Part shown: piece after piece, positions 27,852 through 50,800 of the stretch
How the letters are laid out: every line of letters starts with the position of its first letter
Numbering within the stretch: the stretch's first letter is position 1
Source of the DNA: Botryllus schlosseri
Lineage: Eukaryota
Assembly: GCA_051294905.1 (NCBI GenBank)
Contig: CM119371.1
Location: 32,366,001-32,430,000 of the forward strand
DNA: 64,000 nt
Direction of reading: 5' to 3'
Notes under the pieces: generated by a model
Database searches by the model: none
What the model was told of the DNA's origin: nothing
Seen by the model: the letters and a program-made list of their open reading frames with translations, nothing else
Made by a program: the position numbers and the translations under genes

Positions 27852-28589
27852 GTGGATTCAACAAGTTTTGAAGGTGTTACAGCCATTTTTCGTTTTGACC
27901 ATGTTGTGGTGGGGCTAGAGAGTTGATTTTTTCAATTATGAATGCTCTCGGCATGACCTGTCTTCAGTTTAAATTTCAAGTGGATCGGACAAGTATTATA
28001 GAATCTAGGTTTCTGGTGGCGCTAGAGAGTTGATAATTTCATGGATGATTGCTCTCGGCAAGACCTATCATCAGTCCAAGCATAGTGTCCTATATGGTGT
28101 CGACACAAGCAAATCTCACGGTTCAATGAAATTGTATCACGTCACAATTTCCATTTGGCTACAGGCAATTTGACGGTTATTTTTGACCGGCTTGCCGAGC
28201 AATAAATTTGATGAATCGGGTATCAATCGAAAGCTAACTTTGCACTGATTACGAAAATATAAATTTTATTCCACTCATGGCCCTGGAACCCCCACAATCA
28301 GCCCCAAATTATTCATTGTTGAGTAGATTGGCAGTGTGACGCAACAATGCTGTCTGGCTAAACGAGAGAGAAACTCAAGAGGAAGGATGCGGCCGAGCGG
28401 TGAGAGTGGCATCAGCTGACGTCGCGGCAACAGCTATGTGCATTGTGCAATTATAGATAACTAACCTAGCTATACTTAGACGGAAGGATCTCTATAAGTT
28501 GAAGGATATTGCAGGAAAATTCGTAGGTCCCAAATACATTCTATGGACCCAGTTCTACCTTTAGAAATCAAGGAAAGGCTGGTAATGTG

Positions 28590-29046
28590 TGAAGTCGCGA
28601 TTTCAGACTTCAAGAGCCATAAACATCACGGTTCAATAAACCTTGTATGACCTTTGTGACGTAACTGTTATATAGTTCACTGCCGTTCAGTTTCGCCCTC
28701 GTTGCCTGCTTTGTATCAGTTGCTAATATTTCGACTATCAATCTTATTCAATCGTATTTACCTCGCAATTTTTATAGATCCTAAAATAATTATTATGAAT
28801 AGTCTGATTCGAAATTTGTAACTGTCCTCAAGGAAACACCGTCAAGTAAGTATATATTGATTTATCCGGTACTAAACAATTTGTGTTAATTCGCTGTGTA
28901 TTAATGCTTTCAGAAAACCGTTTTTCGTCTGTGTAAAATAAAATCCAACGAAGCAGGCAGAAACGCGTCATCTTGGGGTGTTGGATAGGACAGTTATATC
29001 TCTATTGTGTATACGTGGAAGATTCCACCCCTCTTTCGCGGTTACA
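28590..29046 (+). repeat. BEL 5' LTR
   Basis: TGAAGTCGCG...CGCGGTTACA; appears identical to the 3' LTR by eye. Confidence 0.95.
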
Positions 29047-29113
29047 TAAAGTTTTTTGACGGATCCATTCAACAAGTGCACCAATCAGCAAAGAAAACTC
29101 AGCTGTCAATGTC

Positions 29114-32100
29114 ATGGATTCCAACAACCAAACAAAAGATCCTGATCTGGATGTTACACAGAGATGCGAAGAAGACAACAAAGTCACCAAAACAAAAGAC
29201 AAACCAAAGTCTTCAAGGTCTCATGGTGCCAGATCAAAATCATCAGTTCAAACGAGATCCATGTCAAAGGCTTTAGAGCACAAATACTTGAAAGCAAAAA
29301 GTTCAAGCAAATCAAGTTCAAGTCATCGGTCATCAACAGGTACCGGTACTTCTACATCAAATCATTCAACTAAATCTCGCTATAGTGGAATGAACGTCGA
29401 AAATGTCGTAAATTATCATCAAAAACTGCAAGAAATATGCTCTGCACGAGCAAAACAGGATATTGAAGATATTCAGGCTTCATTGAACACTGAAATACAA
29501 TCAATTCAAAATCAAACTGCTTTGGCCCGAGCCAATCTACAAGAACAAAAAAAGAAGTTAGCAGAAGATCTACGAAAGAAACTAGACGAAGAAAAGAGGA
29601 AGTTGGAGGAAGAACAAAGGAAGTTGGAGGAAGAAGAACAAGAACTACAAAGACAACAAAATCAACAATGTGAAATGATTAAACAAAGGATGCAGCAAAA
29701 TGCTGACGAAACAGCTCGCCGTGTAAGACGAGAACATTTGCAAAATACATGTGAACTAGAACTAGAACTCACTAGACGTGGTGTATCAACGCAAAGTTCA
29801 CCTCAACTGACAGCGGAAGAACTGCAGCCATCTGAAAACAGGAGCCTGGCTCCTCAAGTAAGCAATGTTCCAGAACAACTACAGCAAGCAAGTGCTGCTA
29901 TTCAACCTACGAACAATGTAATAACTTCAACTGCTGAAGCGTCTACAAATGTCACTCCACTGATATCTTCAAATACTTCATATGCAGGTGTGGCTATTCC
30001 TTTTAATAGCTTGTCTCACAGCTCTCGCCAAATGTCTAATGTTGTAGGCCTAAGTGAGAATGTATGTGTGCGTGAAAGATCTAACAGTAATTGTGTGACT
30101 GCTCGTTTGGACGCATGCATTGCACCCAAAAATCAATCGCCTGTAATTGATGCCGAAAATAGTCGCCTTGTTGTAGCACCTCCCATGATTGATACACAAA
30201 TAACTACTAATTTGCCTAGTTCTTTTGCATCTGGTAGCGTACAACCCTTTGTGCCAGCTAATTCAAATCAAGCAGCTACAGCAGGCTGCACAGTTCAAAA
30301 TACTGCAAACTCTGATCTCAATGTAAAGCCTAACCAACCGCCTAACTTGATTCAATGTGAGAATCCGTATGTCATTCACCAGGTTAAACCCAGTGATCAA
30401 ATTGTCTCATTCAAGTTGGAACCAAAATGTTTTAGTGGCGACCCAATTGAATTTGATACATTCAAGGAAATGATAAATGCTACTTTGAATCGTCAACCAT
30501 GGTCGCAAAAGCAGAAGTTGATGCATCTTTTGCAATATACCCGTGGTATTGCCAATACTTTTGTTAAAGCTTGTGAAGATATGGAAAACTGCTTTGATGA
30601 AGCTCTTGCGGTATTGAAAGACAATTTTGGCCAACCGTTCCAAATAAGTGACCGCTACATAAACACTGTTATAAATGGCTCGAAACTTGTAGAAGGTGAC
30701 AACGATTCTCTGCTGTTATTTCACGCATCGTTAACTGCTTGTACCAATAAGTTGACCAAATTTGAAAGAATTCGTGATGTTTCACGCTCTATGGTTGAAC
30801 AAATTGCCGAGAGACTTCCCCCTTCCTGGCAGCCTGGTTGGAGAACCTTAGTGGCGGAGGTCACTTTTGACCTGAAAACCGAACTGACTGTTGAACATGT
30901 AAATAACTATGTTCGTCAGAAAATTAGAGAAATCACTAGTAAATATAACAACCCTAATCATGAAATATCCAAGAAGCAAGTTACGGGTGTATTCAAAGCT
31001 GGCAAGCCAAAGGCATCATTCAGCACACAAGTTGTGACTCCAACATTGGAACTTTGCTTCATGTGCAACGAAAAGCATTTCTTGAATCAATGTACCCAGT
31101 TCCGCAAAATGCAGTATCCTGATCGCATTGAATTCGCCAAAACCAAAGGGCTCTGCTTCAAGTGTCTAAAGTCGGGACACTTCGGAAAAGCATGCAAACG
31201 CATTCAAGCTTGTATAAGGCCTGGTTGCAAAGGCAATCATACAACACTTCTTCACCCACCTGAAGAAAAGATAAAAGAGGTTGCTAACAAAACCTTGGAT
31301 TCGGCAAATGAACAAATTGAAGGCCAAGGCAAAATTTCTGATTCAAAAGAAGCTACCTCTTTCTTCAGTGCTTCCTGCGATGACAATGAATATGATGATG
31401 ATGAATGTGTGACTTTGAATGTAGTTCTGGCAAGACTACGGATCGTTGGCACTGACAAGTACATCGTCACCTTGGCATTGATTGATAATGCAAGCAATTG
31501 TTCATTCATATCTGAAGAACTGGTGAAACTACTCGGTCTCGCTGGGCCCGAGCGAAACGTAACTTTCCAAACAATCGAACCATCTAAAAATACCAAGAGG
31601 TCAACCATTGTTCGTGGTTTAGAGATTTCTGATTACGAGGGATCAGAATACGTACCTCTGAAGTCACTGATATCTACAGAAAAAATCGCTCTGGACAACG
31701 ACCTTCGGCCAACACAAAGTGATGTACATCAATTTCAACAATTTGAAGACATTCCAATCCCAGATCTTTCTGGAGACATCGGTCTGCTGATTGGTAAAAA
31801 CAACCCCAAAATTCATAAGCCTCTGGAAACTATATATGGACCTGAGGATTACTTCGCAGTGAAAAGTGCCATCGGATGGATGTTTACATGCCCAAAACAA
31901 TCCGAACCTTTCAAACCTCACTCCTATTTCATTCAAACCAATCCAAACCCTTTGTGCAGGATGTGTCACGATGATGTCAATTCCATAGCAAATGACAAAA
32001 CTGAACTCTCTGTAAATGATAAACTATTTATGGAAAAGGTGTCATCGACAATCCTACTTGACTCGAACGGGCACTACCAAATGGAATTACCATTGAAACA

Positions 32101-35100
32101 TCCGGATTTAACACTGCCCGACAACAAACATCAAGCAAAACAAAGAATCAATTATCTGCAGAAAAGATTCCAAAAGGATCCAAAGTTCTTCGATGAATAC
32201 AAAGTTTTCATGTCTGACATGATCACAAATGGATATGCCGAGAAGGTTCACAATGATGGGCCAGTTGGTAAAACCTGGTACCTGAGCCATCACGGTGTGT
32301 ATCACCCTGAAAAGAAGACTATCCGCGTTGTTTTCGATGCATCTGCGAAATTCAATAACCTGGCGTTGAACGACCTTCTGTTACAGGGGCCAGACCTAAC
32401 AAACAACCTTGTTGGTGTTTTATCGCGCTTTCGCAGAAATGAAGTTGCGATCCAAGGTGACATTCGATCAATGTTCCACCAGGTTAAGGTTGATGAATCT
32501 GATAGAGACCTGTTACGCTTCCTGTGGTGGAAGGATAATGACCCAAACCAACAACTTGAAACGTACCGCATGACTGTGTTTTTATTTGGGACTGTGAGCA
32601 GCCCTAGCTGTGCCAACTTTGCTCTACGAACTGTCGCTGAAGACAACAAAAATGCCTATGACATTGATGTCATAAATGCGGTTCAAAAGAACTTCTACGT
32701 TGATGATTTTCTTGATTCCTGTGAGGATACTCCTGCTGCAATTCGTCGTGTGGAAGATGTCAGCTCTCTGCTAAGCAAAGGTGGATTTGAACTGACAAAA
32801 TGGGCAAGCAATTGCAGAGAAGTACTGGCAGCAATACCGGAATCAAACAGAGCCAAAAACCTGAAAAATATTGACTTGTTAACTGATGAGCTACCGATGG
32901 AGAAGACATTGGGGCTTGCCTGGAATATAGAAGATGATTCTTGGTGCTTCCGCGTCAAAGAAAAACACAAACCCTGTACCAGAAGAGGAATTCTGAGTAT
33001 CGTGAACTCAATTTTTGATCCGCTGGGAATGGCTCAAACTATAGTGCAACCAATGAAGGTATTGATGCAGCACTTACGCAAAAATAACTACAATTGGGAT
33101 GACCCGTTACCTGAAGAAGCCACGAAGATTTGGTACGACTGGTTATCTCAACTACAGAAGCTTGAAAACTTTACGATTCCAAGATGTTTCAAACCGTCAA
33201 AGTTTGGACAGGTGACAAGAATCGAACTTCACCACTTCTCAGATGCCTCCGAGTTGTGCTATGGTGCAGTATCTTATCTGAGATATCTGAATGATGCAGG
33301 TGAGATTCACTGTTCTTTTGTTTGTGGAAAAACAAGACTCGCCCCCATCAAAGGTTCTACCATTCCGAGAATGGAGTTGTGCGCTGCAACAATATCTGCC
33401 AGTAATAACAAATTTCTGCTAAAAGAGCTGGACCTGCCTATTGACGATTCATACTTCTGGACTGACAGCACAACTGTTTTGCGATATCTCACAAACAAAG
33501 ACAAAGCTTTCAAAACCTTTGTTGCGAACAGAATCAATATGATCAAAGAGTCTTCAGAATTATCGAACTGGAGGTATGTACCTTCAAAACAAAACCCTGC
33601 TGATATTGCTTCTCGGGGCCAGACTGTTTCTGAATTCTTGACTTGCGACATGTGGAAATTCGGTCCAGAATTCTTGTGGAAAGATTCTTCGGAGTGGCCT
33701 CAACAACCAACATTTCTAGAGGAGTTGTCTGGTGATGACCCAGAAATCAAAAAGCCAAACAAATTGTGTTTTCTTACAATTACCACTCCAAGTTCTGTTC
33801 TTGATGAACTCATCTCCAAGATCTCAAGCTGGACTCGACTGAAAAGGGTGCTGGCATGGGTTTTGCGCTTCAAAAGTAATCTTCTTGCCAAAGTGAGAAA
33901 CAAACAACCAAATGCAAAGCTGACAAACGAGGCATTGACTTTAACCGAAGTTAAAGCTGCCGAAGAAATGCTTATACGTCATGAGCAAACAAAGCACTTC
34001 TCTGAAGAAATAGAAAGACTGAAGACTGATGAACAAATCAAAAGATCTAGCCCGATCTACAAATTGCTGCCATTTCTGGATAATGGGACCCTCCGGGTTG
34101 GAGGCAGAAATCAAAATGCTCCTATTGGTTACGACTCAAAACATCCGATAATCATCCCAAAAAAGAGTCCAATTGCAGAATTGGTCATTCGAGATGCTCA
34201 TATTTCATGTGGCCACAGTGGCCGGGAATATGTTATTGCCCAAGTCAGAGAAAGATTTTGGGTTGTCACAATCAATTCCAAAGTACGATCCGTTCTGAAA
34301 AATTGTGTCTCATGTAGGAAACGTCAACGAAAACCAGAATCTCAACAAATGTCTGATCTACCATCTGATAGATTAACTCCGAATGACCCGCCGTTCCACG
34401 CAGCTGCGGTTGACTGTTTTGGTCCGTTTTTGGTAAAACGTGGTAGATCTGAGTTAAAACGATATGGCGTTTTGTTCACTTGCCTAACCACTCGCGCTGT
34501 CCATATTGAAATTGCGAATAGTTTGGACACTGATTCTTTCATTATGGCACTGCGTCGCTGCATTGCACGCCGTGGACAAATCAGTTTGATACGGTCAGAT
34601 AATGGCAGCAACTTCACATCAGGTGAGAAGGAGTTGAGACAAAACATTTTAACTTGGAATCAAACAAAAATACAAGATTTTTTGGTGCAAAAACAAATAA
34701 CTTGGTTGTTTCAGACCCCTTGTGCATCCAATCATGGTGGTGTATTTGAAAGACAAATTCGAACAGTGCGAAAGATTTTGGGTGCTTTGTGTGATGAACA
34801 AATGTTGTCTGATGAATCTCTATTAACATTGATGTGCGAATGTGAATCAATTATGAATAATCGCCCAATTTCAACTGTGTCTAGTGATCCACATGATTTG
34901 ACCCCAATAACCCCTAACAGTCTGTTGTTGTTGAAAGATAAACCCATGCTACCACCTGGTGTGTTCAATGTCAAAGATGTTTACTCTCGAAAAAGATGGA
35001 GACAAGTCCAGTACTTGGCTGATCTTTTTTGGACAAGGTGGAAGAAACAATACCTTCCACTACTTCAGATTCGCCAAAAATGGAATGAAAAGAAAAGAAA

Positions 35101-35293
35101 TATCACTGTAGGTGATGTTGTGCTTGTGTTGGATCAAAACCTACCTCGTAACATGTGGTTGCTAGAACGTGTGATTGAGACCCTACCTGACAAGTCTGGG
35201 TTGGTGAGAAGCGCGAGAGTGTTTACCAAAACGAATATTTTGAAACGACCCATAAACAAATTGGTGCTTCTCTGTGAAGCTCGTGACTGTTGA
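29114..35293 (+). CDS. BEL/Pao Gag-Pol polyprotein (coiled coil, Gag, 3 zinc knuckles, protease, RT, RNase H, integrase)
   Basis: 2059 aa. CFMCNEKHFLNQC, CFKCLKSGHFGKAC, CIRPGCKGNHTTLLH; ALIDNASNCSF; NFYVDD; HHFSDASELCYG; H..GH/CVSC; VDCFGP, SDNGSNF, GGVFER; BEL-type C-terminus. Confidence 0.97.
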   Translation: MDSNNQTKDPDLDVTQRCEEDNKVTKTKDKPKSSRSHGARSKSSVQTRSMSKALEHKYLKAKSSSKSSSSHRSSTGTGTSTSNHSTKSRYSGMNVENVVNYHQKLQEICSARAKQDIEDIQASLNTEIQSIQNQTALARANLQEQKKKLAEDLRKKLDEEKRKLEEEQRKLEEEEQELQRQQNQQCEMIKQRMQQNADETARRVRREHLQNTCELELELTRRGVSTQSSPQLTAEELQPSENRSLAPQVSNVPEQLQQASAAIQPTNNVITSTAEASTNVTPLISSNTSYAGVAIPFNSLSHSSRQMSNVVGLSENVCVRERSNSNCVTARLDACIAPKNQSPVIDAENSRLVVAPPMIDTQITTNLPSSFASGSVQPFVPANSNQAATAGCTVQNTANSDLNVKPNQPPNLIQCENPYVIHQVKPSDQIVSFKLEPKCFSGDPIEFDTFKEMINATLNRQPWSQKQKLMHLLQYTRGIANTFVKACEDMENCFDEALAVLKDNFGQPFQISDRYINTVINGSKLVEGDNDSLLLFHASLTACTNKLTKFERIRDVSRSMVEQIAERLPPSWQPGWRTLVAEVTFDLKTELTVEHVNNYVRQKIREITSKYNNPNHEISKKQVTGVFKAGKPKASFSTQVVTPTLELCFMCNEKHFLNQCTQFRKMQYPDRIEFAKTKGLCFKCLKSGHFGKACKRIQACIRPGCKGNHTTLLHPPEEKIKEVANKTLDSANEQIEGQGKISDSKEATSFFSASCDDNEYDDDECVTLNVVLARLRIVGTDKYIVTLALIDNASNCSFISEELVKLLGLAGPERNVTFQTIEPSKNTKRSTIVRGLEISDYEGSEYVPLKSLISTEKIALDNDLRPTQSDVHQFQQFEDIPIPDLSGDIGLLIGKNNPKIHKPLETIYGPEDYFAVKSAIGWMFTCPKQSEPFKPHSYFIQTNPNPLCRMCHDDVNSIANDKTELSVNDKLFMEKVSSTILLDSNGHYQMELPLKHPDLTLPDNKHQAKQRINYLQKRFQKDPKFFDEYKVFMSDMITNGYAEKVHNDGPVGKTWYLSHHGVYHPEKKTIRVVFDASAKFNNLALNDLLLQGPDLTNNLVGVLSRFRRNEVAIQGDIRSMFHQVKVDESDRDLLRFLWWKDNDPNQQLETYRMTVFLFGTVSSPSCANFALRTVAEDNKNAYDIDVINAVQKNFYVDDFLDSCEDTPAAIRRVEDVSSLLSKGGFELTKWASNCREVLAAIPESNRAKNLKNIDLLTDELPMEKTLGLAWNIEDDSWCFRVKEKHKPCTRRGILSIVNSIFDPLGMAQTIVQPMKVLMQHLRKNNYNWDDPLPEEATKIWYDWLSQLQKLENFTIPRCFKPSKFGQVTRIELHHFSDASELCYGAVSYLRYLNDAGEIHCSFVCGKTRLAPIKGSTIPRMELCAATISASNNKFLLKELDLPIDDSYFWTDSTTVLRYLTNKDKAFKTFVANRINMIKESSELSNWRYVPSKQNPADIASRGQTVSEFLTCDMWKFGPEFLWKDSSEWPQQPTFLEELSGDDPEIKKPNKLCFLTITTPSSVLDELISKISSWTRLKRVLAWVLRFKSNLLAKVRNKQPNAKLTNEALTLTEVKAAEEMLIRHEQTKHFSEEIERLKTDEQIKRSSPIYKLLPFLDNGTLRVGGRNQNAPIGYDSKHPIIIPKKSPIAELVIRDAHISCGHSGREYVIAQVRERFWVVTINSKVRSVLKNCVSCRKRQRKPESQQMSDLPSDRLTPNDPPFHAAAVDCFGPFLVKRGRSELKRYGVLFTCLTTRAVHIEIANSLDTDSFIMALRRCIARRGQISLIRSDNGSNFTSGEKELRQNILTWNQTKIQDFLVQKQITWLFQTPCASNHGGVFERQIRTVRKILGALCDEQMLSDESLLTLMCECESIMNNRPISTVSSDPHDLTPITPNSLLLLKDKPMLPPGVFNVKDVYSRKRWRQVQYLADLFWTRWKKQYLPLLQIRQKWNEKKRNITVGDVVLVLDQNLPRNMWLLERVIETLPDKSGLVRSARVFTKTNILKRPINKLVLLCEARDC

Positions 35294-35425
35294 GAGCTGA
35301 AACTTGTTACAGTTTTTTGAGTATTGTAACCTTTCGTTTCTTTGTGTTTTTATTGTGAATTTGCAGTTGTGTAAAAATTGCCAAACTTGCATAAATTCAA
35401 ATTTTCAATTTTTAAAGGGCCAGGA

Positions 35426-35882
35426 TGAAGTCGCGATTTCAGACTTCAAGAGCCATAAACATCACGGTTCAATAAACCTTGTATGACCTTTGTGACGTAA
35501 CTGTTATATAGTTCACTGCCGTTCAGTTTCGCCCTCGTTGCCTGCTTTGTATCAGTTGCTAATATTTCGACTATCAATCTTATTCAATCGTATTTACCTC
35601 GCAATTTTTATAGATCCTAAAATAATTATTATGAATAGTCTGATTCGAAATTTGTAACTGTCCTCAAGGAAACACCGTCAAGTAAGTATATATTGATTTA
35701 TCCGGTACTAAACAATTTGTGTTAATTCGCTGTGTATTAATGCTTTCAGAAAACCGTTTTTCGTCTGTGTAAAATAAAATCCAACGAAGCAGGCAGAAAC
35801 GCGTCATCTTGGGGTGTTGGATAGGACAGTTATATCTCTATTGTGTATACGTGGAAGATTCCACCCCTCTTTCGCGGTTACA
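35426..35882 (+). repeat. BEL 3' LTR
   Basis: Same 457-bp sequence as 28590-29046. Confidence 0.95.
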
Positions 35883-37160
35883 ATGTGTGCTCGCTTTCAG
35901 CGAAGCGCCTATAGAAAGTATCAACATCGCCACGCATCTCTGGAGCCCTACGCAACAAGCGGGCTGAGGTAATCGATATCATAATAATCTGACATATCCA
36001 ATGTAGACTACTTAGACGTAGCCTACATATCTCTATCAGCTGAAGGATATTGCGCGAAAATTGGTAGGGACCAAATACATTCTGTGGACCCAGTTCTACC
36101 TTTACAAATCAAGGAAAGGCTGGTAATGTGTGCTCGCTTTTAGCGAAGCGCCTATAGAATGTATCAACAGCGCCACGCATCTCTGGAGCCCTACGCAACA
36201 AGCGGGCTAAGGTAATCGATATCATAATAATCTGACATATCCAATGTAGACTACTTAGACGTAGCCTACTTATCTCTATCAGCTGAAGGATATTGCGCGA
36301 AAATTGGTAGGGACCAAATACATTCTGTGGACCCAGTTCTACCCTTACAGATCAAGGAAAGGCTGGTAATGTGTGCTCGCTTTTCGCGAAGCGCCTATAG
36401 AAAGTATCAACAGCGCCACGCATCTCTGGAGCCCTACGCAACAAGCGGGCTAAGGTAATCGATATCATAATAATCTGACATATCCAATGTAGACTACTTA
36501 GACGTAGCCTACATATCTCTATCAGCTGAAGGATATTGCGCCAAAATTGGTAGGGACCAAATACATTCTGTGGACCCAGTTCTACCTTTACAAATGAAGG
36601 AAAGGCTGGTAATGTGTGCTCGCTTTTAGCGAAGCGCCTATGGAAAGTATCAACAGCGACACGCTTCTCTGGAGCCCTACGCAACAAGCGGGCTAAGGTA
36701 ATCGATATCATAATTCATAATAATCTGACATATCCAATGTAGACTACTTAGACGTAGCCTACATATCTCTATCAGCTGAAGGATATTGCGCGAAAATTGG
36801 TAGGGACTAAATACATTCTGTGGACCCAGTTCTACCCTTACAAATCATAGAAAGGCTGGTAATGTGTGCTCGCTTTTAGCCAAGCGCCTATAGAAAGTAT
36901 CAACAGCGCCACGCGTCTCTGGAGCCCTACGCAACTAGCGGGCTAAGGCAATCGATATCATAATAATGTGACATATCCAATGTAGACAATTTAGACGTAG
37001 CCTAAATATCTCTATCAGTTGAAGGATAATGCGCGAAAATTGGTAGGGCCCTAATACATTCTGTGGACCCAGTTCTACCCTTAAAAGTCAAGGAAAGGCT
37101 GATAAGGCGTGCTCGCTTGTACCGAAGCAAATAGAAAAGTATCAACAGCGCAGCGTTTCT
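35883..37160 (+). repeat. ~243-bp tandem repeat inside the P-like element (first unit split by BEL, starting ~28500)
   Basis: AAGGAAAGGCTG-type anchor recurs at 36111, 36354, 36597, 36847, 37090. Confidence 0.92.
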
Positions 37161-38393
37161 CTGCGACGCGATTGCACATAGCTATTGCCGCGACGTCAGC
37201 TGATCCCACTCTCGCCGCTCGGCCGCATCCTTCGTCTTGAGTTTCTCTCTCGTTTAGCCAGACAGCATTGTTGCGTCACACTGCCAATCTACTCAACAAT
37301 GAATAATTTGGGGCTGATTGTGGGGGTTCCAGGGCCATGAGTGGAATAAAATTTATATTTTCGTAATCAGTGCAGAGTCAGCTTTCGATTGATACCCGAT
37401 TCATCAAATTTATTGCCCGGCAAGCCGGTCAAAGATAACCGTCAAATTGCCTGTAGCCAAATGGAAATTGTGACGTGATACAATTTCATTGAACCGTGAC
37501 ATTTGCTTGTGTCGACACCATATAGGACACTATGGTCCAAGTTTCAAGCATGTCCGTCAAGTAGAACAGAATCTAGGTTTCTGGTGGCGCTAGAGAGTTG
37601 ATATTTTCATGGATGATTGCTCTCGGCAAGACCAATCATCAGTCCAAGTTTCAAGCATGTCCGTCAAGTAGAACAGAATCTAGGTTTCTGGTGGCGCTAG
37701 AGAATTGATATTTTCATGGATGATTGCTCTTGGTAAGATAAATCATCACTCCAAGTTTAAAGTGGATTCAACAAGTTTTGAAGGTGTTACAGCCATTTTT
37801 CGTTTTGACCAGGTTGTGGTGGCGCTAGAGAGTTGATTTTGCATGGATGAATGCTTATGGCAAGGCCAATTACCAGTCCAAATTTCAAGTATATTCGTCA
37901 ACTAACAAAAATCTTACAGTATTTTTAATGTCTTACGAGGCTATTTAAGCATGTTCTGGTTGCGCTAGAGACTTGATTTTTATTTTTCTGGAAAGGGCGG
38001 GAAAAGCCGAATAATCCATGTGAATTTCAAGTCAATCGGACCACAAAATCTAAATTTTTTCTGGACCCCTAATTTCTGAAAAACCATGTTGTGGTGGCGC
38101 CAGAGAGTTAATTTTTTTTTCTGGAAAGAGCTCGGAAAGGCGATTAATCTATGTAAATTTCAAGTAAATCGGCCAACGTTTACTATTTTTCCAAGTACGA
38201 AATGTGTTCGAAATAAAAAAACCCGAACGTTTTCTGTTATTTCTCCTTCAGTTTTCACACTATCGTCTCGGGGAAGGTGGCGTTCGAAAGATGTCTGTAA
38301 GAAAAATCCAGACGTTTTGGAATTATCTCGATAGCTATCACGGCCTTCAAATGACAGCTATTTGAAAATGACAGTTTTTCAGGAAAATTCGAT

Positions 38394-38475
38394 TGACGTC
38401 ATCGTTCCGGTGGGCGGTCACGGCGCGCCAATTCAGAAAGTATATAAACCGGAGTTTCGAGCGGCGGAGCTCATT
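38394..38475 (+). promoter_or_regulatory. Compact RNA Pol II promoter: CRE, GC box, CCAAT, TATA, Inr
   Basis: TGACGTCA 38394-38401, GGGCGG 38412-38417, CCAAT 38428-38432, TATATAAA 38441-38448, and an Inr-like TCATT with its A at 38473, 32 nt after the TATA start. Confidence 0.75.
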
Positions 38476-38546
38476 ACGCGTTAATTGGTTGTATTAAGGT
38501 AAGCATCGGCCGTGCGTCAGGTGTCTTTTAGAAATATTTTTTGCAG
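38473..38546 (+). ncRNA. Spliced-leader (SL) RNA-like gene: 26-nt leader, GT donor, Sm-like site
   Basis: ATTACGCGTTAATTGGTTGTATTAAG|GTAAG. The first ATT and last 14 nt match the Halocynthia-type ascidian SL as I recall it (ATTGGAGTATTTGGTTGTATTAAG; verify). ATTTTTTG at 38536-38543 fits an AU4-6G Sm site. 3' end uncertain. Confidence 0.65.
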
Positions 38547-40774
38547 ATAAACAAAGAAAACTGGTATCGCTGGGATACATTGACTTATCATAAATATTTA
38601 ATCTACGTCTGCGCTGTGCAGTTAGATTTAACAGTCGTACCGTCGTACCTAGACTTTAGTGCCGTACACGTGGTTGCCGTACAGACTTACCTCGCCTTAC
38701 ACGCTTTTGCCGTAAACAGATTCCCAACGTACACGCAGTTGTCGTTGTTCTTTAAAACCTACAAACAGCGCAATACATATACGGTAGCCTCAAGTTAAAC
38801 AGATTTACCTGCAGTCCAGGGCTGTCTTGCCTGCAGTCTTCACAAACATACGGCTCGCGCTGTATTGTCTGCAGTTTCGACACACATACACGGATCGCGC
38901 AACTTAGGCTGCTTTGCCTGCATCTCTGACATACACACAGCTGCTTCGCTGTCGCGCCTGTTCTTCCAAACAACATTGCCTGTAGTTCTAATAATCACAC
39001 GGTTTCTTTGTGGCCTTACCTGCAGATCAGAAAGACACCACCGGCATATCAGCATACGCGCAGCTGCCTTGCTTGAAGATTCGGGTTTTAAAAGAGCGAG
39101 GTTGCCTTGATCTGAACTGAAAGATAGGCCTGTCCTTGCACAATCACGCAGTTTCGGATTCAACCAAGAAATAGAAAACTTCACCTTCCTTTCAGTAGTG
39201 AATTCCACAGCCTTGCGGTCGCGCGGCGTCTTGACTTGCTGAACAGTCTTGTAAAAGGTTGTTGTGGCTGTGCGTCCCTTTTGCACAGCAGCAAGCAGGA
39301 ACTACCTGAAATACAAAATACAAAGATTACCTACATATTAGGATTAAAACTAACTGACATCCAAGAAAACTGAGCTGTAAAGACAACAGACAGCTACATA
39401 GGCTTAGAAAACGCCGATACTTAGGTTAGAGTATTGGAAGAATTGGACAACTTGGCAGTAGAGATTTTGACAAGGCGGCATAATACAACGAATAAATAGA
39501 AGCTTGTAAATAACCTACGAGCGTAATTCAGCTTGTGGAGACAAATAAATACCGAATTAAATAGAAATATCGCTACAAATTCCAGGCTGCGGACAGAAGA
39601 TCCGCGCTTAGATAGACAATCGGACGGAACAAAAGGACACCTTTGTCTCCCGATTTTTGATTTGTCTAGAGGCATTGTTGATATAACTAGCCACAGAGCG
39701 GTCAGAGGCTACAAGAATGAAAGGGAGAACTAGATCAATTGACTTAATCTTCAGTGAAGAAATAGAACTGAAACAAGCAATTGAACTGGTAACAGAAAAT
39801 GAACTACTAACAGAAAATGAACTACTAAAAGAAAATGTTGTACAACTGGAAGGCCTCTTCCAAAACGGCATACGTGCATACAACATAACTTATGAAACAG
39901 AGGAAACAAAAACAAGAGGTAATGAAAAAAACAAAAAGAATAATCAAAACGGAAGATTATACAGTGTGGCTGTATAAACCCAGAAATCAAAAATACACAA
40001 TAAACATTAGGGCAGTCCCTACAGAGATTGAAAACAGTGAAATAAAAGAACTATTATCGGCCTTAAACTGTGGAAAAGTTGGTACAGTTGAAAAAGTGCA
40101 TCATAAAGGCACGATGATATACAACGGCTTCAGGCTGCAGCAAACCGCTGCAGCAAAAAGTTGGAAGGACACTTGTAGGGAAAACAACCTCATAGATGTC
40201 TTCAGAACCAGACACCACATGAAAAAACTTTACACCATTAAAAAATTCCACCAAGAGAGAAGGATAGACAGGGTGTACTGCTCCAAAGAGATACAACAAG
40301 AAATACAAGGATTTGAATATAAAATTAATTTGATGTCAGACCACTTATACATGGGAATCTTGACAATTAGGAAACCTGAATCAAGCAAATGGGGTCCAGG
40401 AATATGTAAAAATGATGTTGAATTATACAAGAATAAAGCGGTTAGGTCTGAGATAACACAAATATACGAGTTATATGCAGAGCAGAAAAAAATGAACAGT
40501 CACATCACTGAGTGGTGGGACGGAATAAAAACAGTTATAAAGAACGTATTAATAAGGAACGGGAAAGAACTAAGTAAGGAAAGGAAAAAAAGAATGAGAA
40601 TTCTAACAACCAAGATAAATAACGTAGAAAGGAATTCGGCAGAATTTCACGAATTAATTTCGGAACTAGGAGATCTAGAGAAAGAAGACTTCAAAAAATC
40701 ATTAATACAAGCAGGTATTGATGATAGGGAGATAAACGAAAAACCGAGTAAAGAAGTCGTTGAAAGATTGAGAG

Positions 40775-41502
40775 CCAAGATAGAGAAACAAAACATAGCA
40801 CAATTAGTAGATGATGATCAGAACTTGCTAACCAATGAAAACGAAATAATGGGAGAAGTAACGAACTTCTACCAAAATCTATGGGGTAGAAAACCAACAA
40901 CAGATAGACACAAACAATGCCAACTTGTGGAAGAAGTAAAGGACGTGGAAATAACACCAAGATAGAGAAACAAAACATAACACAATTAGTAGATGATGAT
41001 CAGAACTTGCTAACCAATGAAAACGAAATAATGGGAGAAGTAACGAACTTCTACCAAAATCTATGGGGTAGAAAACCAACAACAGATAGACACAAACAAT
41101 GCCAACTTGTGGAAGAAGTAAAGGACGTGGAAATAACACCAAGATAGAGAAACAAAACATAACACAATTAGTAGATGATGATCAGAACTTGCTAACCAAT
41201 GAAAACGAAATAATGGGAGAAGTAACGAACTTCTACCAAAATCTATGGGGTAGAAAACCAACAACAGATAGACACAAACAATGCCAACTTGTGGAAGAAG
41301 TAAAGGACGTGGAAATAACACCAAGATAGAGAAACAAAACATAACACAATTAGTAGATGATGATCAGAACTTGCTAACCAATGAAAACGAAATAATGGGA
41401 GAAGTAACGCACTTCTACCAAAATCTATGGGGTAGAAAACCAACAACAGATAGACACAAGCAATGCCAACTTGTGGAAGAAGTAAAGGACGTGGAAATAA
41501 CA
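40775..41502 (+). repeat. Four tandem copies of a 182-bp ORF2 segment
   Basis: CCAAGATAGAGAAACAAAAC at about 40775, 40957, 41139, 41321; each extra copy shifts the frame. Confidence 0.93.
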
Positions 41503-42112
41503 CAAGAACAAATGGATATCCTTAACGGTCCCATTTCTGAAGATGAAACAAAGGAGGCTATCGATAAAATGCAGAGTGGGAAATCGCCGGGCAGCGATGG
41601 ACTATCTGCTGAATTTTATAAAGCCTTCTGGAAATTGATTAAGACTGAATTGACAGAAGTCATGAACAATGCCTTTTTGTTTAATCAACTATGTGAATCC
41701 TGGACGAAGGGCATAGTTAAAATGATTTACAAAAAAGGAGATAGCAAAGAACTTAGAAACTATCGTCCGTTGACCCTGCTCAACACGGACTATAAGATTC
41801 TATCTAAAATAATTAACAGAAGACTGTCAGAGATCATGCCTAACATTTACAAAAGCCAAAAATGCAGCGTGAACCAACGCTACATTCATGACGCCACGTT
41901 GAACATTAAAGCAGCCATCGATTACACCAAGTATAAAAAGAAGCCTTTATTCATAGCCAGTTTTGACCAAGAGAAGGCTTTCGATATGGTAAATCATGAA
42001 TATTTGATGAAATTGAATCTTGGAACAAAATTCCACAGATACATTGAAACGACGTATAAAAAAGCAACCAGCAATGTAGTGGCAAATGGGAAGATATCGC
42101 AGACAATTAAAA

Positions 42113-42829
42113 TAGGGTTACCATATTTTTGTAATCCAAATTCCGGACGCTCCTCAGCGCCCACTAGCGGATTTCAAAATGCGGTGTTATATTGTGGATC
42201 AATATGACGTCACACCAGCGAAGCTTTGTCTATCGACTAGAGGTGGTCAAGATCCGGTTCAGGAGTATGTGGTTGTGTGTTGTGGGTTATAACCAGGGCC
42301 GAAGCCACATTTTTCAGCCCCACCATGGCCTTAGTAGGCCATGGCCCCACCCCGTCCATCGTAATCGATGCAAGTTCTGGGGCTTACTATATGCATCTGG
42401 TCGTTAAATGATTTGAATGAAGTATGTCAATAATATTGGTTCTTCCATGTATTACTATATAATTTGATCCTCACTCCGCCCACATGATCAGAGTTTGCGG
42501 TAGAGCTGGTGGAGGATGATGAATTCGAAAATGCGAGGAGCGTAATGGTACTTCGTCAAGTCATGTCCAAACGGCCTAAACCGACTCTATGAAGATACCG
42601 TTAGACTCATTTCTGTGTTATTTTTATTTATTTTTGATCACATTTTTGCGAGGGTGGTAGTCCCGATATTAAGACCAATATATGTGACACTAAATTGATT
42701 TAGGAAAAAATTATGAGCTTACTTCTAAATTCCGGACATTTAGGCATATTTTAGAAATTCCTCCCGGATACAGATTTAACAGTGAAATTCCGGACATGTC
42801 CGGGAAATTCCGGACGTATGGCAACCCTA
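42113..42829. mobile_element. hAT (Blackjack-like) MITE inserted in the LINE RT
   Basis: TIRs TAGGGTTACCATA / TATGGCAACCCTA, 8-bp TSD AATTAAAA (42105-42112, 42830-42837), TCCGGAC subterminal repeats. Removal restores ...QTIKIKRGIRQGCPMS. Confidence 0.93.
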
Positions 42830-45800
42830 AATTAAAATCAAAAGAGGAATAAGGCAGGGCTGCCCAATGAGTATGTCACTGTACGCCATTGCGGCAGACC
42901 CTTTGATAAGAAAAATAATAAAAGACGAAAAGATCAAAGGTGTTTCGATAGGCAACCAGGGCGAAATGAAAATGCAGCAGTACGCTGATGACCTGACAGC
43001 AACAGTAACGGACGAGGAATCTATAATAAAAGTCCTGCAACATCTGCAGGACTTTGAAAGAGCCACGGGCCAGAAAGTCAACAAATCCTTGCGACAAACA
43101 AGGAGGCGAAGAAAAGGAGGAGAAACCCAGAGATTAACGAGTTCTACCACGAACAAATTAAGGTACTGGACTCCTAGGAGAGAAGAACGTAGAGGAGATG
43201 TGGATGAGAAAAATAGCCAAAGTGGATGAGAAAGATAGTCAAAGTTAAAAACATACTTAACTTATGCAAAGGAAGAGACCTTACCTGGATTGGTAAAGAG
43301 AACGTGCTTAACAGCTTGGCAACCTCGCAGATTTTGTATGTGGCGCGAGTGTATCCACCTGGAAAACAACATACAAAAGCACTTAACAAACTGTTCTTTG
43401 AGTTTCTTTACCACCCAGAAAAGATGGAGACGATATCCAGGATTAAACTAGCCTCAAGTAAAGAGAAGGGAGGCATGGCAATTCCATTCCCAATATGGAA
43501 AGCCACTACTAGCGACATAATGAAGATGAGAGACCTAGCTAACATTGACACACCAGAAGAATTTTGGCAAAAACACGCATTATATCAATTAGGAACCAAA
43601 ATCAACCAAATTAATCCGGAACTGTACACCAACAGCACCCCGCACAAAAATGTACCAAATAAAGATTGGGCCGCAACCTTGAAAAAATACAAAAATTTGA
43701 AGTGGGGAAGAGAACAGCTTCAAGAAGCTAACTTCAAAACAATATACACTACATTAACAGACATGCATGGGAAAAAGGAAGACACGATCTCAAACACCAA
43801 CGAAGAAAAGATTATAAACTACAGAATAGCACAAGACGGCTATAACTTTGGATCGAACAAAAAAAGACGTGGAATGCTAAAAATAATGAAAGGGAAAATG
43901 GAAAAACATAAATGCAAATACTGCAAAATAAACGAAGAAACGGTAGACCACGTGTTTACCGAGTGCACAGTGACGTTAGCGGTGTTGAGAGGAGTGGAGA
44001 GAATCCTGGACTTGTCACCTGCAAAAACAGACATGATATTAATGAACAAGCTAAATTCAGATGGATTGATACTTACAATGATATCAATTTACAAAAGAAC
44101 GGTGCTGACACACAAACAATACCTCGACATTGAAATTATGAACTTGGAGGAAGAAAAGAAATGGAGAAGAGACGCAATCAAGAAAATCCTGGGGAAACTG
44201 TTGCAGAGATTCAAGCTGCACGAAAATACCCAGAAGAACAAAGAAATAAAGAAATGGACGGAAAAAATATCTATTTTCATGTCCGAAGAAGAATAAAGAA
44301 TTGGACAGGAAATGTGAATGCCTTCCTGTCCAAAATGAACAAAAACGGACGGGAAAAGACAACATACCGTCGTCTCGTCAGGTGAGGAATGACGAAATGA
44401 TGGGATGATGGAAAAGAAGAGGAAAATGGAAAGATGCGCGGCGATTTCATGTATTTCATGTTAGTTTGTGCCGCGCGCGGTAATTAATTTGCATTTTTTG
44501 TATTGAAATTATATGAATGTAATAAATACTCGGCGGTTAGCCAAAAGAAAGAAAAAAAAAAGAGCTAGATACAAGTTAGACAGGTCGCTGGTTATGGCGA
44601 AAGACAGGTGCTGCAGAGTGGCCGGCGTCCTCCAGGGGGACTTGCCCCCTGAGTCTGGCTGGGGCAATATTTTCGCGCGGACGGTTTTTTCGCTTGTGCG
44701 CGGCTTTCATTGAAAACGCGTCAGGGGGGTGGGGGGTATTCGCGCGGTGCGTTTTTGCGCATCGCGCGGCTGGTTTTTTCGGTTGTGCGCGGCTTTCATT
44801 GAAAACGCGCCAGCGGGGTGGGTCGTAGCGCGGCGTTGGGTGGGACCCTCTGGGACCTGCCCACGTGTCCGGGACGCACCAGACCCAGCGGGTAAACGGC
44901 AGGAGTAATTTTTTAGCACGACATCGTCGTGAGGCCCGTGTGTCGCACCGGTGGTCGACCCGTGATTTGGACGCCCAATAATGTATCGCAGCCGCAACCG
45001 GCCCAGCCTGCAGCTGCGGTCCGTGTTCGTGAAGGGATGGCCGCAAGGCCGCGTCGCACGATCCGGGCTCCGGTCCGAATGGACTTGTAGTTTCAAGAAC
45101 TGTGGTTTAAAGTTTCGTTCGTGCTTGAATTATAGCTGTGACATCAAATTTTTACGCATTGTACCACCTTTTTTAGTTATATTAAGTTAATTTAACTGTT
45201 TTCTTTTGGCCACCTTTGCTAGTATCGTGTTTTATTGCTTAATGTGTCGTTCTTATTTTTTGTTGGCCACTTGTGTCTAGTCTTTGTCTTATTTTATGTT
45301 ATTATTATCACATTTTATCGCTTTTATCCCTCGCTTAAACTGTGCATTGCATTTCTTTTAATCGCTTGTTTATTTTTCAGATCATATTATCATAGCGTTA
45401 GTGTAAACGTGTTCTAAAACACTAGTTAACCACTGCAATGCGTCTAGAACAGAATGGGGCAGAAAGAGGTCGGTGTCAGCTGGTCGGAACAGTGCGATGG
45501 TGTTAAGCCGGGGTTGGAGGGAGGACGACTCTTCGTGAGAGAAGAAGTACTGTGTAACAGTACGTAAACTTTAGTGAGCATTGCGTTGTTCGATCACGCC
45601 GTGCTTTCTAAAGCTTTATTTACTGTTACATACTATCACAATACTAATATAAAATAGTTGTGTAGAAAGTGTTTGTGCTTGCGAGGTCATGATACAGTGT
45701 CTTGCCTGTCTTGCATGTGCTGTTCTGAGTTGTACGTGCAAGGTTTGGCAAAACACTGTTTCGTGACAGTGCATGGTTTCGTTGTAGGGAAACTAGCTGG

Positions 45801-47019: not shown

Positions 47020-47830
47020 ATGTCGTATAGAACTCCGACGAAAAGCCCTTTCGGAAAGGAGAGGAGGAAGAATCCTGATTTTTCTGTCGACTGGTATCAA
47101 CATTTTCCATGTCCTGAGATGTTTAGACGGCAACCAGCTCGAATCGATTCGATTGAAGTTACCTGGCCCAGAAGACGACGACTGCTACGAAGTATTGCGT
47201 GATCTTCTGATGCGTGAGTACGCTGTTCCCTTACGAGACCGTGTTAAGGAGCTTTATAGTGATCGCTGTAGGGATTTAAAACCCTCTGAACTTCTGAAAA
47301 AATTGCGAAATGCAATGGGGGCTCTATCAAACACACGAAGTTCTGACTGTTATTTGAAAGAAACGTTCCTTCATCATTTGCCAGATCATATTGCTGGGAT
47401 ATTGTCGTCACATGTAGACGATACTGTGGAACAGCTTGCCCTACGAGCTGATATAGTATATACACTCGCGCTTCTCCTCGTGTGGTTTCAAATCATTACT
47501 GTTATCCTCAGACTAATCAATTGGATGAATTGCAACGAACTGTTCAATCGATAGCTCGAGAGGTCAGGGAATTGAAAGCGATACCTTCGACACGACAAGT
47601 ATCTGTATCTGACGGATAACAATCACGTGATTTCAATCGTAGTTCCGCTCCCCGTCCTGAACCATTCCGCTCCCCGTCCTGAACGCTGTCAAACCGTTCA
47701 GAGACACGTGGTGAGGTAACTCAATTTGCTCATCTGCGTGGTACGAATCAGTTGTGCTTTTATCATGATAAATTCGGTGATCGAGCTCGAAATTGCCGTC
47801 CATCCTGCTCCTACTCCTCAAATCGCCCTT
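47020..47830 (+). pseudogene. Frameshifted Gypsy gag
   Basis: FHVLRCL...CYEVLRDLL...KPSELLKKLR...FLHHLPDHIAGILS and the CFYHDKFGDRARNCRPSC knuckle lie in different frames. Confidence 0.75.
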
Positions 47831-50800
47831 TTAGACGGAGGCCTCGTGAGGGATCGCAACAATTTTCAACAGTGAATGCTAACTTCGAGTGTCAGAACCC
47901 TTTATTGCATGTGCGAGATTCGTTCTCAGGACAGATTTTCCTGGTCGATACAGGAGCATCCGTTTCTATTCTACCGACTTCAAGTAACGTTTTCAAGAGT
48001 AAACCAGGACCAAATCTGTACGCTACAAATGGATCGAAAATTGCGACGTTTGGAACGAGATATTTACGGATCGAGTTATCCGATAGACACAAGTATGGAT
48101 TTCGATTCTATATCGCCGATACACACATTGCCATATTGGGGGCTGATTTTATTGAGCGATTTTCTCTCGTCGTTGATTTGAGGAGCAATTGTCTGATTGA
48201 TACTGTTTCAGGAGGTTTCATTCCTGGCTGGAAGTGTAATCCAGTAGTTCGCGGTTTGAACTTTATAGCGCCTGATCACAATACGCCATATGTAGATCTT
48301 TTGTCGAGCTTCAGCGATATTACCATCCCACGGAATGCAGCAGGACGAGCTACTCACGGTACTGTACATCGAATTATTACTAATGGATGTCCCACTCGAT
48401 CTCGCTGTCGCCCATTGCCGCCCCATTTGAAACAGAAGGTGAAGAATCGATTGCAAGAGATGTTGAAGTCCGGTGTAATCATTCGCTCAAAATCGCCTTT
48501 TGCCTCTCCCATTACTGTCGTACCAAAGGGGTTAGACGATATTAGAATCTGTGTCGACTATAGGAAATTAAACAATCAAACGGTCAAGGATCGCTGGCCT
48601 GTCCCATTTTTGCGTGATTTTACCAATGACCTGTCGAACTGTAATGTTTTTAGCAAAGTTGACTTAGCGAAGGCGTACCATCAAATCCCTCTTCATCCGG
48701 ACGATCAAGAGAAGGCTGCTTTTATTTGTCCCGAAGGTCTATTCCAGCCAACGACGATGATGTTCAGCTTGACCAACGCTTGTAGTACTTTTAGTCGTTT
48801 TATATCTGAAGTAACCGAAGGACTGGACAATATATTTGTGTTTTTAGACGACATTTTAATTGCGACTCGTACTGAAGAAGAGCACATGGCAACATTGACG
48901 AAGTTGTTTTCAAGGTTTCGGAAGTTCGGACTGGTCATAAATGTTGATAAGTGCAGTTTCGGTAAGGAAGAAATCGAATTTTTAGGTCACCTTGTTAATG
49001 CAAGGGGAATTAGTCCCTTGCCATCAAAGGTAGAAGTAATCTCTAACTATCCTCGTCCCGAAAATGTGAAACAACTACGTTCATTCCTTGGACTAGTCTG
49101 CTATTACCACCGTTTTGTCAAAAACTGTGCCGAGATTTTGAAGCCACTGTATGACGTGGCCAATGCAGCATCGAATAAGCGTGATCGTGTCAAATGGACA
49201 GATAGTGCTAACACAGCTTTCGAACGCATCAAGACCGAACTGTCCGATAATGTCATATTATCCCACCCGATTCACGATGCTGAACTGTCACTCGTGGTTG
49301 ACGCTAGTCAAGTCGGAATTGGAGCTGTTTTGCAACAGAAAAGTGATGATTCGTGGTTACCCTTGGCTTTCTTCTCGAAAACCTTGAACCCGACACAACG
49401 CAAGTACTCCGCATTTGATCGCGAGCTTTTAGCGGCTTATTCGGCAATCAAGCATTTTCATGTCCAGCTAAAGGGTAGGAAATTTCAACTGATTACCGAT
49501 AATGACGGCCTTGTAAAATCGTTAAGGAATCCGACCGACAGACTTCTGGATCGTCAAGCAAGACAGTTGGAATTCATCACGGAAAATACCGACGACGTCA
49601 GACACATCAAGGGGAATCTGAACACAGCTGCGGATACTCTCTCAAGACTCGAGGTGAACGCGATTTTTCCGAACACCGTTCCCGTCACAGCGGAAGCATT
49701 ACTACAAGCCCAGAAAGATGATGATGAGCTCAAAGAACTCCTCGCTAACGCTGGTGACCATTCGTTGGATCTCGCGGAAGTACATTTCGAAGAGTTGAAC
49801 GATCCTATCATCTTCGACAAATCGTTACCTGGTAGAGAACGTCCCTACGTTCCTGCGCCGCTTCGAGATACTGTAATGCAAAGTGTGCATGATATTTCGC
49901 ACCCCGGTATACGCGCGACCACTAAATTGATAGCTGAACGTTATGTATGGCCTGGTATGAAACGACATGTGAACAAGTTCGTGCGTCATTGTCAGCAGTG
50001 TCAACGATCGAAGATTCATAGGCATACTCGAACTCCAATCAATAACCTTCCCGTCCCTTCCGAACGCTTTCACACGGTTAACGTGGACATATTGTCACTC
50101 CCGAATAGTTGCGGTTACTCGTATATTCTGATGTGTGTTGATCGCTATACTCGCTGGCCTGTATGTGTTCCCATGATGGACATTCGTGCTCAATCTATTA
50201 TTGATGCGTTTAGTTTTGGCTGGGTGTCGAATTTCGGCTCACCCCGTAAAGTAATAACCGACCGAGGAAGTCAGTTTACCTCGCTGGAATGGACTCGGTA
50301 TATGCAATTCTTATGTATTTTCCATATCACAACCTTGGCGTATAAGCCGGAGCAAAATTCTCTTGTCGAACGCTATAACAGAACTTTGAAAGCCTCCCTT
50401 CGCGCATTAGAAAGTCCTCATAATTGGTATCATCATTTAGGCTTAATTGTTTTAGGGCTGCGATGTTCTGTCAAGGAAGATCTCGGTTATTCACCAGCAG
50501 AGCTTGTGTATGGCACTTGCCTTCGATTACCCGGTCAATTAGTCAATCCCTCTTCCAGTGGTAATAACGCTAATGATTTCAACTACGTCGGTGAATTGAA
50601 ACGCTTTTTCTCAGCCTTGGGTGAGATGCCGACTAAGTTTCATTTGAATCAAAAATCTTATGTCCCAAACGATTTGAATAATTGCACGCACGTTTTCTTG
50701 CGGATAGATGGTCATCGTAGATCACTCGATCCGGTTTATTCTGGACCACATCAAGTTTTAAAACGCACTAGTAAATGTTTCACAATTCAAACGAATAAGG

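Follow-up and report, generated by a model that had tools for sequence, protein, structure and literature searches.

A stretch resembling a spliced-leader RNA gene in Botryllus schlosseri is probably the head of an old, broken LINE

Does a 64-kb stretch of the Botryllus schlosseri genome (contig CM119371.1, positions 32,366,001 to 32,430,000), which we call the window, hold at its positions 38394-38550 a gene for a spliced-leader (SL) RNA, or does this sequence belong to the long interspersed nuclear element (LINE) that follows it? In succession, the locus shows a cyclic AMP response element (CRE), a GC box, CCAAT, a TATA motif, a proposed initiator (Inr), a 26-nucleotide (nt) leader ending in a splice donor, and a T-run with a possible 3' splice site. 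A first-pass annotation read this order as an SL-RNA-like gene with its own RNA polymerase II (Pol II) promoter, directly in front of a Tx1-clade LINE, and offered two explanations: a LINE lineage that targets SL RNA genes, or a LINE that carries a cis-encoded SL piece. The promoter and splice motifs all lie where that annotation placed them (Table 1), and the 48-nt intron-like interval has both its donor GT and its T-run with CAG. We conclude that 38485-44561 is probably one old, broken LINE of the apurinic/apyrimidinic endonuclease (APE) type, with an SL-derived head that was carried in the element's RNA, rather than a separate gene and an element behind it.

To find repeat boundaries, we searched the window's own assembly (495.5 Mb, 219 contigs) with window 38340-38600 (261 nt) and, as a second query, 38485-39300; loci fetched from this genome carry L-numbers (L003 to L108). 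Homology to other LINE copies begins exactly at 38485. On three other chromosomes, L032, L033, and L034 have the same first bases, TTGG, after an upstream flank quite unlike the one here, and remain 77 to 79% identical to the window, with homology to at least 38746. The second query recovered 12 other genomic places. Together with loci found through the first open reading frame (ORF1), the copies form a 5'-truncation series, with starts equivalent to window positions 38485, 38490, 38500, 38518, 38539, 38689, 39091, and 39362. Because other copies start at the same TTGG and fall into this series, the SL-like piece is the first 14 nt of the LINE and not a unit standing before it.

Those 14 nt (38485-38498, plus strand; TTGGTTGTATTAAG) are the last 14 (nt 12 to 25) of the 25-nt stolidobranch SL. 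An SL with this ending is given for Botryllus, Halocynthia, Boltenia, and Polyandrocarpa, and with one mismatch for Herdmania, in Table 1 and supplementary files 1 and 2 of PMC3795323, which bears out the ending given in the first-pass annotation. The 26-nt leader did not survive as a unit: the full 26-mer has no second occurrence in the genome, where nothing beyond its final 14 nt recurs. SL nt 1 to 11 are absent here, and the 11 to 12 nt that precede the head differ from the real SL and are unique. A 19-mer spanning the donor was found once in the window at up to two mismatches and in none of 100 shuffles.

The DNA in front of the head probably has a different history. At the expected offset, 38467-38484 and 44562-44579 are identical at 12 of 18 positions, compared to 2 to 8 at 24 other offsets, and 38467-38484 begins with GAGC, like the canonical 11-bp duplication of the LINE group described below. 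Judged by this alignment, the pair is a probable target-site duplication (TSD). Should this duplication be genuine, the proposed Inr and 12 nt at the start of the 26-nt leader belong to the target. Of the 261-nt query only 38485-38600 and, separately, 38340-38384 recur in the genome, so that the promoter-like part stands there as a single copy. Within the window, CRE, GC box, CCAAT, and TATAAA occur in this order once (both strands checked); singly, CRE and the GC box are found 4 to 8 times and TATAAA and CCAAT 76 to 146 times. What had been taken for the stretch's own Pol II promoter is unique flank, partly inside the probable TSD. We also rejected the cassette as part of a long terminal repeat (LTR), as no second copy exists in the window or the genome.

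The element behind the head is dead, given its internal deletion of about 1.2 kb, a four-fold 182-bp duplication, and split reverse transcriptase (RT) frames. RVT_1 and zf-RVT domains are recognizable in it, and the solved structure nearest to its RT is human L1 ORF2p (E 4e-24), with R2 at 1e-5. Database relatives combine an N-terminal Exo_endo_phos domain (PF03372, the APE endonuclease) with RVT_1 and zf-RVT; most of the APE domain is gone from the window copy. The protein names of these relatives did not point to a particular clade. The architecture of elements with a restriction-like endonuclease was found neither in the window's domains nor in those of these relatives. The group has the Tx1-type layout (ORF2 with APE, RT, and a C-terminal zinc knuckle, and a separate ORF1) and shows site-specific insertion with a defined target duplication, which is a Tx1 feature; the window copy's own sign of site specificity is only a target beginning GAGC. 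By its domains, the window LINE appears to be an APE-type LINE of the L1/Tx1 kind, with L1-superfamily likeness and site-specific insertion as the demonstrated part of that assignment. The window copy is a dead bystander, and the phenomenon belongs to the LINE group.

To see how widely SL-derived heads occur in that group, we searched the genome with a piece of ORF1, which gave at least 150 places from 217 candidates, and inspected 30 loci, the window included. Eleven of them, the window and 10 of the other 29, have a sense-strand SL 14-mer 400 to 1470 nt upstream of ORF1, and most of the 11 hold more of the SL in front of the 14-mer. The sole antisense hit is a two-mismatch match in the window's own locus. 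A LINE carrying a cis-encoded SL piece, the second explanation offered at the outset, fits this anatomy.

The heads come in two forms. In the intron form (L064, L065, L066, L073, L024, and L018), the SL is followed by GT and a short intron-like stretch; this contains ACTAAC or TATAAC, which resemble a branch point, together with a T-run and CAG. In the intron-less form (L069, L070, L071, L074, and L082), nothing separates the SL from the sequence that follows. L024 and L082, whose ORF1 is 61% identical, are members of a single family and differ by the exact absence of a 24-nt stretch: L024 reads AAG, 24-nt mini-intron, GTGATCC, compared to AAG and GTGATCC directly joined in L082. The T-run plus CAG/AT is kept across diverged subfamilies (the window, L032 to L035, L039, L045, L047, and L053) while the surroundings vary. 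Within the window's family, L043 and L044 carry SL nt 5 to 25, which meet the element no more than 2 nt from the conserved CAG. This exceeds the family's 14-nt head, and the leader there therefore came from a full SL, most likely by trans-splicing. Y-branch read-through as an origin of SL plus mini-intron was rejected, by reasoning only, on the geometry of the 2'-5' branch.

Template switching clearly occurs in this genome as well. A 5'-complete U1-like piece, whose motif is that of the U1 5' end, is fused to an SL-LINE in two independent loci, L043/L044 and L082. At L082:455-620 the order is full-length U6, an A-run, the first 26 nt of the U1-like RNA, the SL from nt 2, and the LINE. An Rfam search of seven loci returned only this U6 (full length, 92.6 bits) and two sub-threshold matches in a palindromic repeat described below. 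The U1-like pieces show what a template-switch chimera should show, a small RNA copied to its own 5' end and joined to the 5' end of the LINE in a single insertion; the SL piece in the window begins at SL nt 12 and is not 5'-complete. At L013, L018, L009, and L025, partial tandem repeats of SL pieces (e.g., GGAGTATTTGGAGTATTGGAGTA..) stand before the leader and look like repeated template jumps or slippage.

SL sequence is abundant in this genome. The SL 21-mer has 331 exact matches and 513 at up to one mismatch, against 0 for a reversed control pattern, and about 43 places carry the SL plus GTAAG. Among 29 such SL-plus-GTAAG sites that we fetched, 21 are a poly(A) retroposon of about 460 nt with the head SL + GTAAGCATCG.. 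and unrelated upstream flanks. This retroposon (L012:1495-1960 and 20 further loci) is headed by the full SL, then GTAAGCATCG, and has a stem-loop; copies have landed in the heads of other copies (L014, L025). We had considered L005 and L014 as LINE insertions into heads and rejected both, L014 being a variant of the retroposon. The first 27 nt of the window's LINE copy (38485-38511) are identical to the head of the ~460-nt retroposon.

A different class of SL copies provides the best candidates for real SL RNA genes. An Sm-type site and a GGACC/GGTC hairpin follow the leader at about 60 nt in 15 of the first 20 exact SL sites on C1. These candidates combine the full SL, the Sm-type site (AGCTTTGG or AATTTTGG), the hairpin, and a shared upstream block of about 190 nt, and in two of three subfamilies the conserved core runs from about -188 to +87. 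RNAalifold on 13 of the units gave invariant pairs only, with no useful covariation. The Sm-type site of L089, AGCTTTGG, matches the Ciona SL RNA Sm-binding site, stated as AGCUUUGG in PMC7986045, where Ciona SL RNA pseudogenes are called "rife." At five places on C1 (L104 to L108), a candidate gene is followed at a distance of about 290 nt by an ORF with a hydrophobic stretch, similar to a signal anchor, at its start; the entire unit, longer than 900 bp, is a repeat whose copies are 93 to 96% identical within each of its two subfamilies.

In the window copy, the GT donor stands directly behind the leader's AAG, as in ascidian SL RNA genes. The conserved CTGG-hairpin-CATTG element of the LINE (38562-38583) can be likened by eye to the 3' hairpin region of the candidates (CTGGACC-loop-GGTCATTG). 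The position that matches their Sm site reads AAAACTGG. The U-run ATTTTTTGC ends in GC, without the closing GR of an Sm site, and the promoter block of the candidates (about -188 to +87) is not present upstream. The head as a whole folds no better than shuffles (z 0.44), and an Rfam scan of the window found no family at gathering score. MAFFT failed to line up the intron side with the SL-RNA-like units. In Smith-Waterman comparisons with shuffles, the intron side of an L032-type head (about 60 nt) resembled that of the SL-RNA-like unit L086 with a z of 5.5, a score reached by 0 of 300 shuffles.

Members of the group have inserted repeatedly at one short motif. GG^T(A/G)AGCATCG recurs in SL-derived heads, where it sits one base behind the SL donor, and in the arms of a palindromic repeat (1,535 exact arms genome-wide; 100 on C1 were listed for inspection). 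This repeat resembles a miniature inverted-repeat transposable element (L032:1280-1500 and the ~1,535 arm sites), and its arms, each about 100 nt long, come in pairs with a spacing of about 226 nt; its landing site reads ..TTTGG^TGAGCATCGTT^TCTATAGAC, and if a gap of 11 nt is allowed, the end of the arm looks like the SL and its donor. At L022 an SL-headed retroposon lies in the repeat between copies of the 11-bp duplication TGAGCATCGTT, and L003, L004, and L013 show shorter duplication variants or target deletions there. Among the fetched loci, poly(A) is joined to TGAGCATCG in six cases and to (GG)TAAGCATCG inside SL-like heads in five, one of them L039, a head of the window's own family. 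Five of 10 SL-headed LINE loci adjoin ..GGTGA(G/C/A)(C/G)ATCGT(T), and L032 to L034 likewise adjoin ..CATCGT(T). An arm normally continues from ..CATCGTT into TCTATAGAC; an SL head stands at that point in 3 of the 100 listed arms. L018 has an SL-headed LINE directly behind SL + GTAAGCATCG. None of the fetched loci showed an element inserted in a candidate functional SL RNA gene, and the window copy lies elsewhere. The proposal of a target-specific lineage linked to SL-like sequence is supported for the group; a position of the window copy in an SL RNA gene is not supported, as neither of its flanks continues as one. ORF1 hits cluster densely (C14:22.16-22.29 Mb, C14:24.0-24.3 Mb, C7:27.5-29.1 Mb, and C2:28.7-28.8 Mb), as expected if copies land in each other's heads.

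We therefore propose the following account. Its observed parts are the homology boundaries, the SL identity, the integration motif, the chimeras, and the decay of this copy; the origin of the head, the use of the splice sites, and the lack of promoter function are inferred. The head, comprising SL nt 12 to 25, the GT donor, and about 12 nt more (the first 27 nt), is probably a fragment of SL-RNA-like sequence travelling in the element's RNA. The LINE group and its non-autonomous partners integrate preferentially at GG^T(A/G)AGCATCG, and the head would most simply descend from an earlier SL-like landing site that was co-transcribed with the element (5' transduction). This origin is the most economical because the motif lies one base behind the SL donor and because the head ends 3 nt past GCATCG, as a duplicated target and the canonical junctions do; alternatively, the RT may have switched templates onto SL RNA. 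The T-run with CAG that the copies conserve some 50 nt from the element's start may act as a 3' splice site to which the cell's real SL could be added in trans, and the element's own donor could use the same acceptor in cis. The promoter motifs would be landing-site DNA, the last 18 nt of which were duplicated on insertion, and the site before insertion would have read ..GAGCTCATTACGCGTTA(A/G)ACAGG...

A bolder extension, which we consider rather less probable than not, is that this is a large APE-type (Tx1-like) chordate LINE group specialized on the SL system. Its endonuclease would aim at the first bases behind the SL donor, and each element would carry or acquire an SL mini-exon with its donor. 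With the acceptor about 50 nt downstream, such elements could produce SL-led mRNA by either cis- or trans-splicing, with the head retained in RNA that stays unspliced, and the head, as a landing pad for the next copy, would build arrays. It might also act as an internal promoter or as an Sm-type ribonucleoprotein signal, taken over from SL RNA.

Several observations weigh against our account. The duplication is imperfect, and 313 of 5,000 random window stretches reached the free local alignment score of the flanks. The cassette is too orderly for chance and may be, or may have been, the real promoter of something. The junction in L043 and L044 is 1 to 2 nt off the CAG. The window's own intron side gave a z of at most 2.0 against the sampled SL-RNA-like units, and in the LINE heads an nhmmer profile built on the candidate SL RNA genes matches no more than the exon with a few further bases. 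Eight of the 15 candidates, fetched with longer flanks, sit in repeat units of more than 900 bp, so that their status as true SL RNA genes is that of candidates. For the L032 copy, a single search of a 2.5-kb stretch 5 to 7.5 kb downstream did not reveal the 3' junction. Finally, the loci inspected are 30 of at least 217 ORF1 candidates.

Among rival explanations, the one that survives best holds that a 5'-truncated SL-RNA pseudogene or an SL-headed retroposon was there first and that the LINE inserted at its cognate site after GCATCGGCC, so that the head is flank and no part of the LINE RNA. The group does insert at exactly this motif within SL-like heads, and the head ends as canonical junctions do. 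However, no SL-like remainder follows the LINE tail, the probable duplication encloses the head together with the LINE, and the same head-to-body junction stands on other chromosomes behind other flanks. We regard this explanation as unlikely.

Somewhat more doubtful still is an exapted unit, in which a host promoter now drives the LINE head and a chimeric transcript acquires an SL-like leader through cis-splicing of 38498^38547. The promoter cassette, which is non-random, lies 12 nt upstream of the head, and donor and acceptor are both intact, but the downstream ORFs are broken. We mapped four bulk RNA-seq runs (about 39 million records) to 37900-40900 at a likeness threshold of 90%. This yielded 49 reads, which come from relatives, because none was at least 99% alike. 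They included no read joining 38498 to 38547, the joint that the first-pass annotation suggested looking for, and no other joints, start clusters, or loose ends at the donor; the 26-mer itself was not searched in the read set. This null result says nothing firm about expression of the window copy.

A working SL-RNA-like gene at 38394-38550 (Pol II promoter, 26-nt mini-exon, donor, and Sm site), with the LINE merely behind or using it, has in its favor the canonical order and spacing of the promoter motifs, a good GTAAG donor, and a downstream U-run, but is very improbable given a genome-unique 26-mer whose first 12 nt are unlike the real SL, a U-run ending in GC off the position matching the Sm site, the absence of the full SL and of the ~190-nt upstream block of the candidate genes, the apparent absence of their Sm-type site and GGACC/GGTC hairpin, and the lack of reads at least 99% alike in the four runs.

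Table 1. Features of the locus and of the LINE copy (window positions)
Feature	Positions	Strand	Basis or remark
CRE TGACGTCA	38394-38401	+	sequence
GC box	38412-38417	+	sequence
CCAAT	38428-38432	+	sequence
TATA motif TATATAAA	38441-38448	+	sequence
Promoter-like motif cluster	38394-38448	+	flanking DNA outside the repeat; no other genomic match for 38385-38484
Probable 5' TSD copy GAGCTCATTACGCGTTAA	38467-38484	+	covers the proposed Inr and the initial 12 nt of the "26-nt leader"
CTCATT (proposed Inr)	38470-38475	+	sequence
Dead LINE copy	38485-44561	+	domain, deletion, tandem-repeat, and 3'-end evidence
AAG/GTAAGC (AAG/GTAAG, exon end at 38498)	38496-38504	+	sequence
Donor GT plus 13 nt GTAAGCATCGGCC	38499-38511	+	common to heads of SL-headed ~460-nt retroposons; holds GG^TAAGCATCG
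T-run plus CAG	38536-38546	+	sequence; CAG ends at 38546, giving a 48-nt interval 38499-38546
CTGG-hairpin-CATTG element, LINE 5' untranslated region (UTR)	38562-38583	+	kept in all copies compared
LINE 5' UTR	to 39888	+	
ORF1-like start	39889-40135	+	
~1.2-kb internal deletion	near 40136-40143	+	compared with L055/L056
182-bp tandem duplication, four copies	40775-41507	+	
RT pieces	41272-42207 and 42831-43229	+	frames split
C-terminal piece with zf-RVT	43217-44296	+	
A-rich tail	ending 44561	+	
Probable 3' TSD copy	44562-44579	+	directly behind the A-rich tail

The cassette lies in a transposon- and satellite-rich stretch, and the window is mostly mobile DNA. A BEL/Pao LTR retrotransposon (28590-35882) sits inside a satellite array; its LTRs (28590-29046 and 35426-35882) are 457 bp each and 100% identical, and its single open frame of 2077 amino acids holds Peptidase_A17, RVT_1, an integrase, and DUF5641, so that the element looks very young. 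Tandem arrays with units of about 243 bp and about 107 to 140 bp flank it (35882-37163 and 37535-38172, also 26098-28591) and end about 200 nt short of the promoter-like cassette. Elsewhere in the window are a Ty3/gypsy-type pol frame with RT, RNase H, and integrase (47683-50988), another RT frame (54628-55968), and a pogo/Tigger-like DDE_1 transposase frame (14264-15910). Just behind the LINE are a possible short first exon (ATGGCGAAAGACAG, then GT; about 44593-44608) and, in GC-rich sequence, a 75-nt direct repeat, 87% identical (44673-44747 and 44762-44833).

For annotation, these results, if they hold, advise caution: in genomes of this kind the majority of SL matches would be heads of retroelements or units carried by repeats, as opposed to simple SL RNA genes. 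The APE-type LINE group seen here, in the sister group of vertebrates, has leader-bearing 5' ends, heads with and without an intron, and an SL-like landing motif. If our account is true, it would be a second way, reached by convergence, of "living off" trans-splicing, and would offer natural markers of how LINE RNAs are spliced, capped, and templated. Our literature searches found no tunicate LINE described as carrying an SL head or as targeting the SL.

Trypanosomes and nematodes provide the textbook examples of SL-linked retrotransposons. SLACS, CZAR, and CRE1/2 in trypanosomatids and NeSL-1 in C. elegans encode a restriction-like endonuclease and insert into functional SL RNA gene arrays. 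They share with the Botryllus elements the tie to a fixed position in the SL sequence and a leader at the element's front. In contrast, relatives of the Botryllus element carry an APE endonuclease domain (PF03372), and the sites seen in Botryllus are SL-derived retroelement heads and a palindromic repeat, with the window copy at neither. SL-linked site-specific retrotransposons are thus already known; what is different here is that they are APE-type and in a chordate. Site-specific LINEs of the Tx1 clade include Tx1L, which inserts into Tx1D in Xenopus, Keno (U2 small nuclear RNA [snRNA]), and Mutsu (5S). Like these, the Botryllus group consists of APE-type LINEs with one fixed site of repeat or small-RNA-like sequence and a defined duplication (here the 11-bp TGAGCATCGTT); we know of no Tx1 element with an SL-derived head and mini-intron.

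Two further comparisons concern how the head may have been copied. Dinoflagellate retrogenes carry relict SLs, and the intron-less Botryllus forms (L043/L044, L069 to L071, L074, and L082) resemble such SL-tagged retrocopies in beginning with the host SL. Many Botryllus copies differ from them in keeping the donor GT and a short intron, which plain trans-spliced mRNA cannot supply. In flatworms, LINE and LTR loci are described as carrying partial leaders, with reverse transcription of leader-bearing RNA offered as an explanation (PMC12582326). Chimeric retrocopies of U6 with L1 and of other snRNAs with LINEs have been described as products of template switching (PMC4476161, PMC11838501, PMC2104539). 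Botryllus shares with them a 5'-complete snRNA piece at the LINE 5' end (U1-like in L043/L044 and L082, with U6 beside it in L082). Unlike in those chimeras, the partner here is U1 or SL RNA, and in the window's family the small-RNA piece has become a heritable part of the element.

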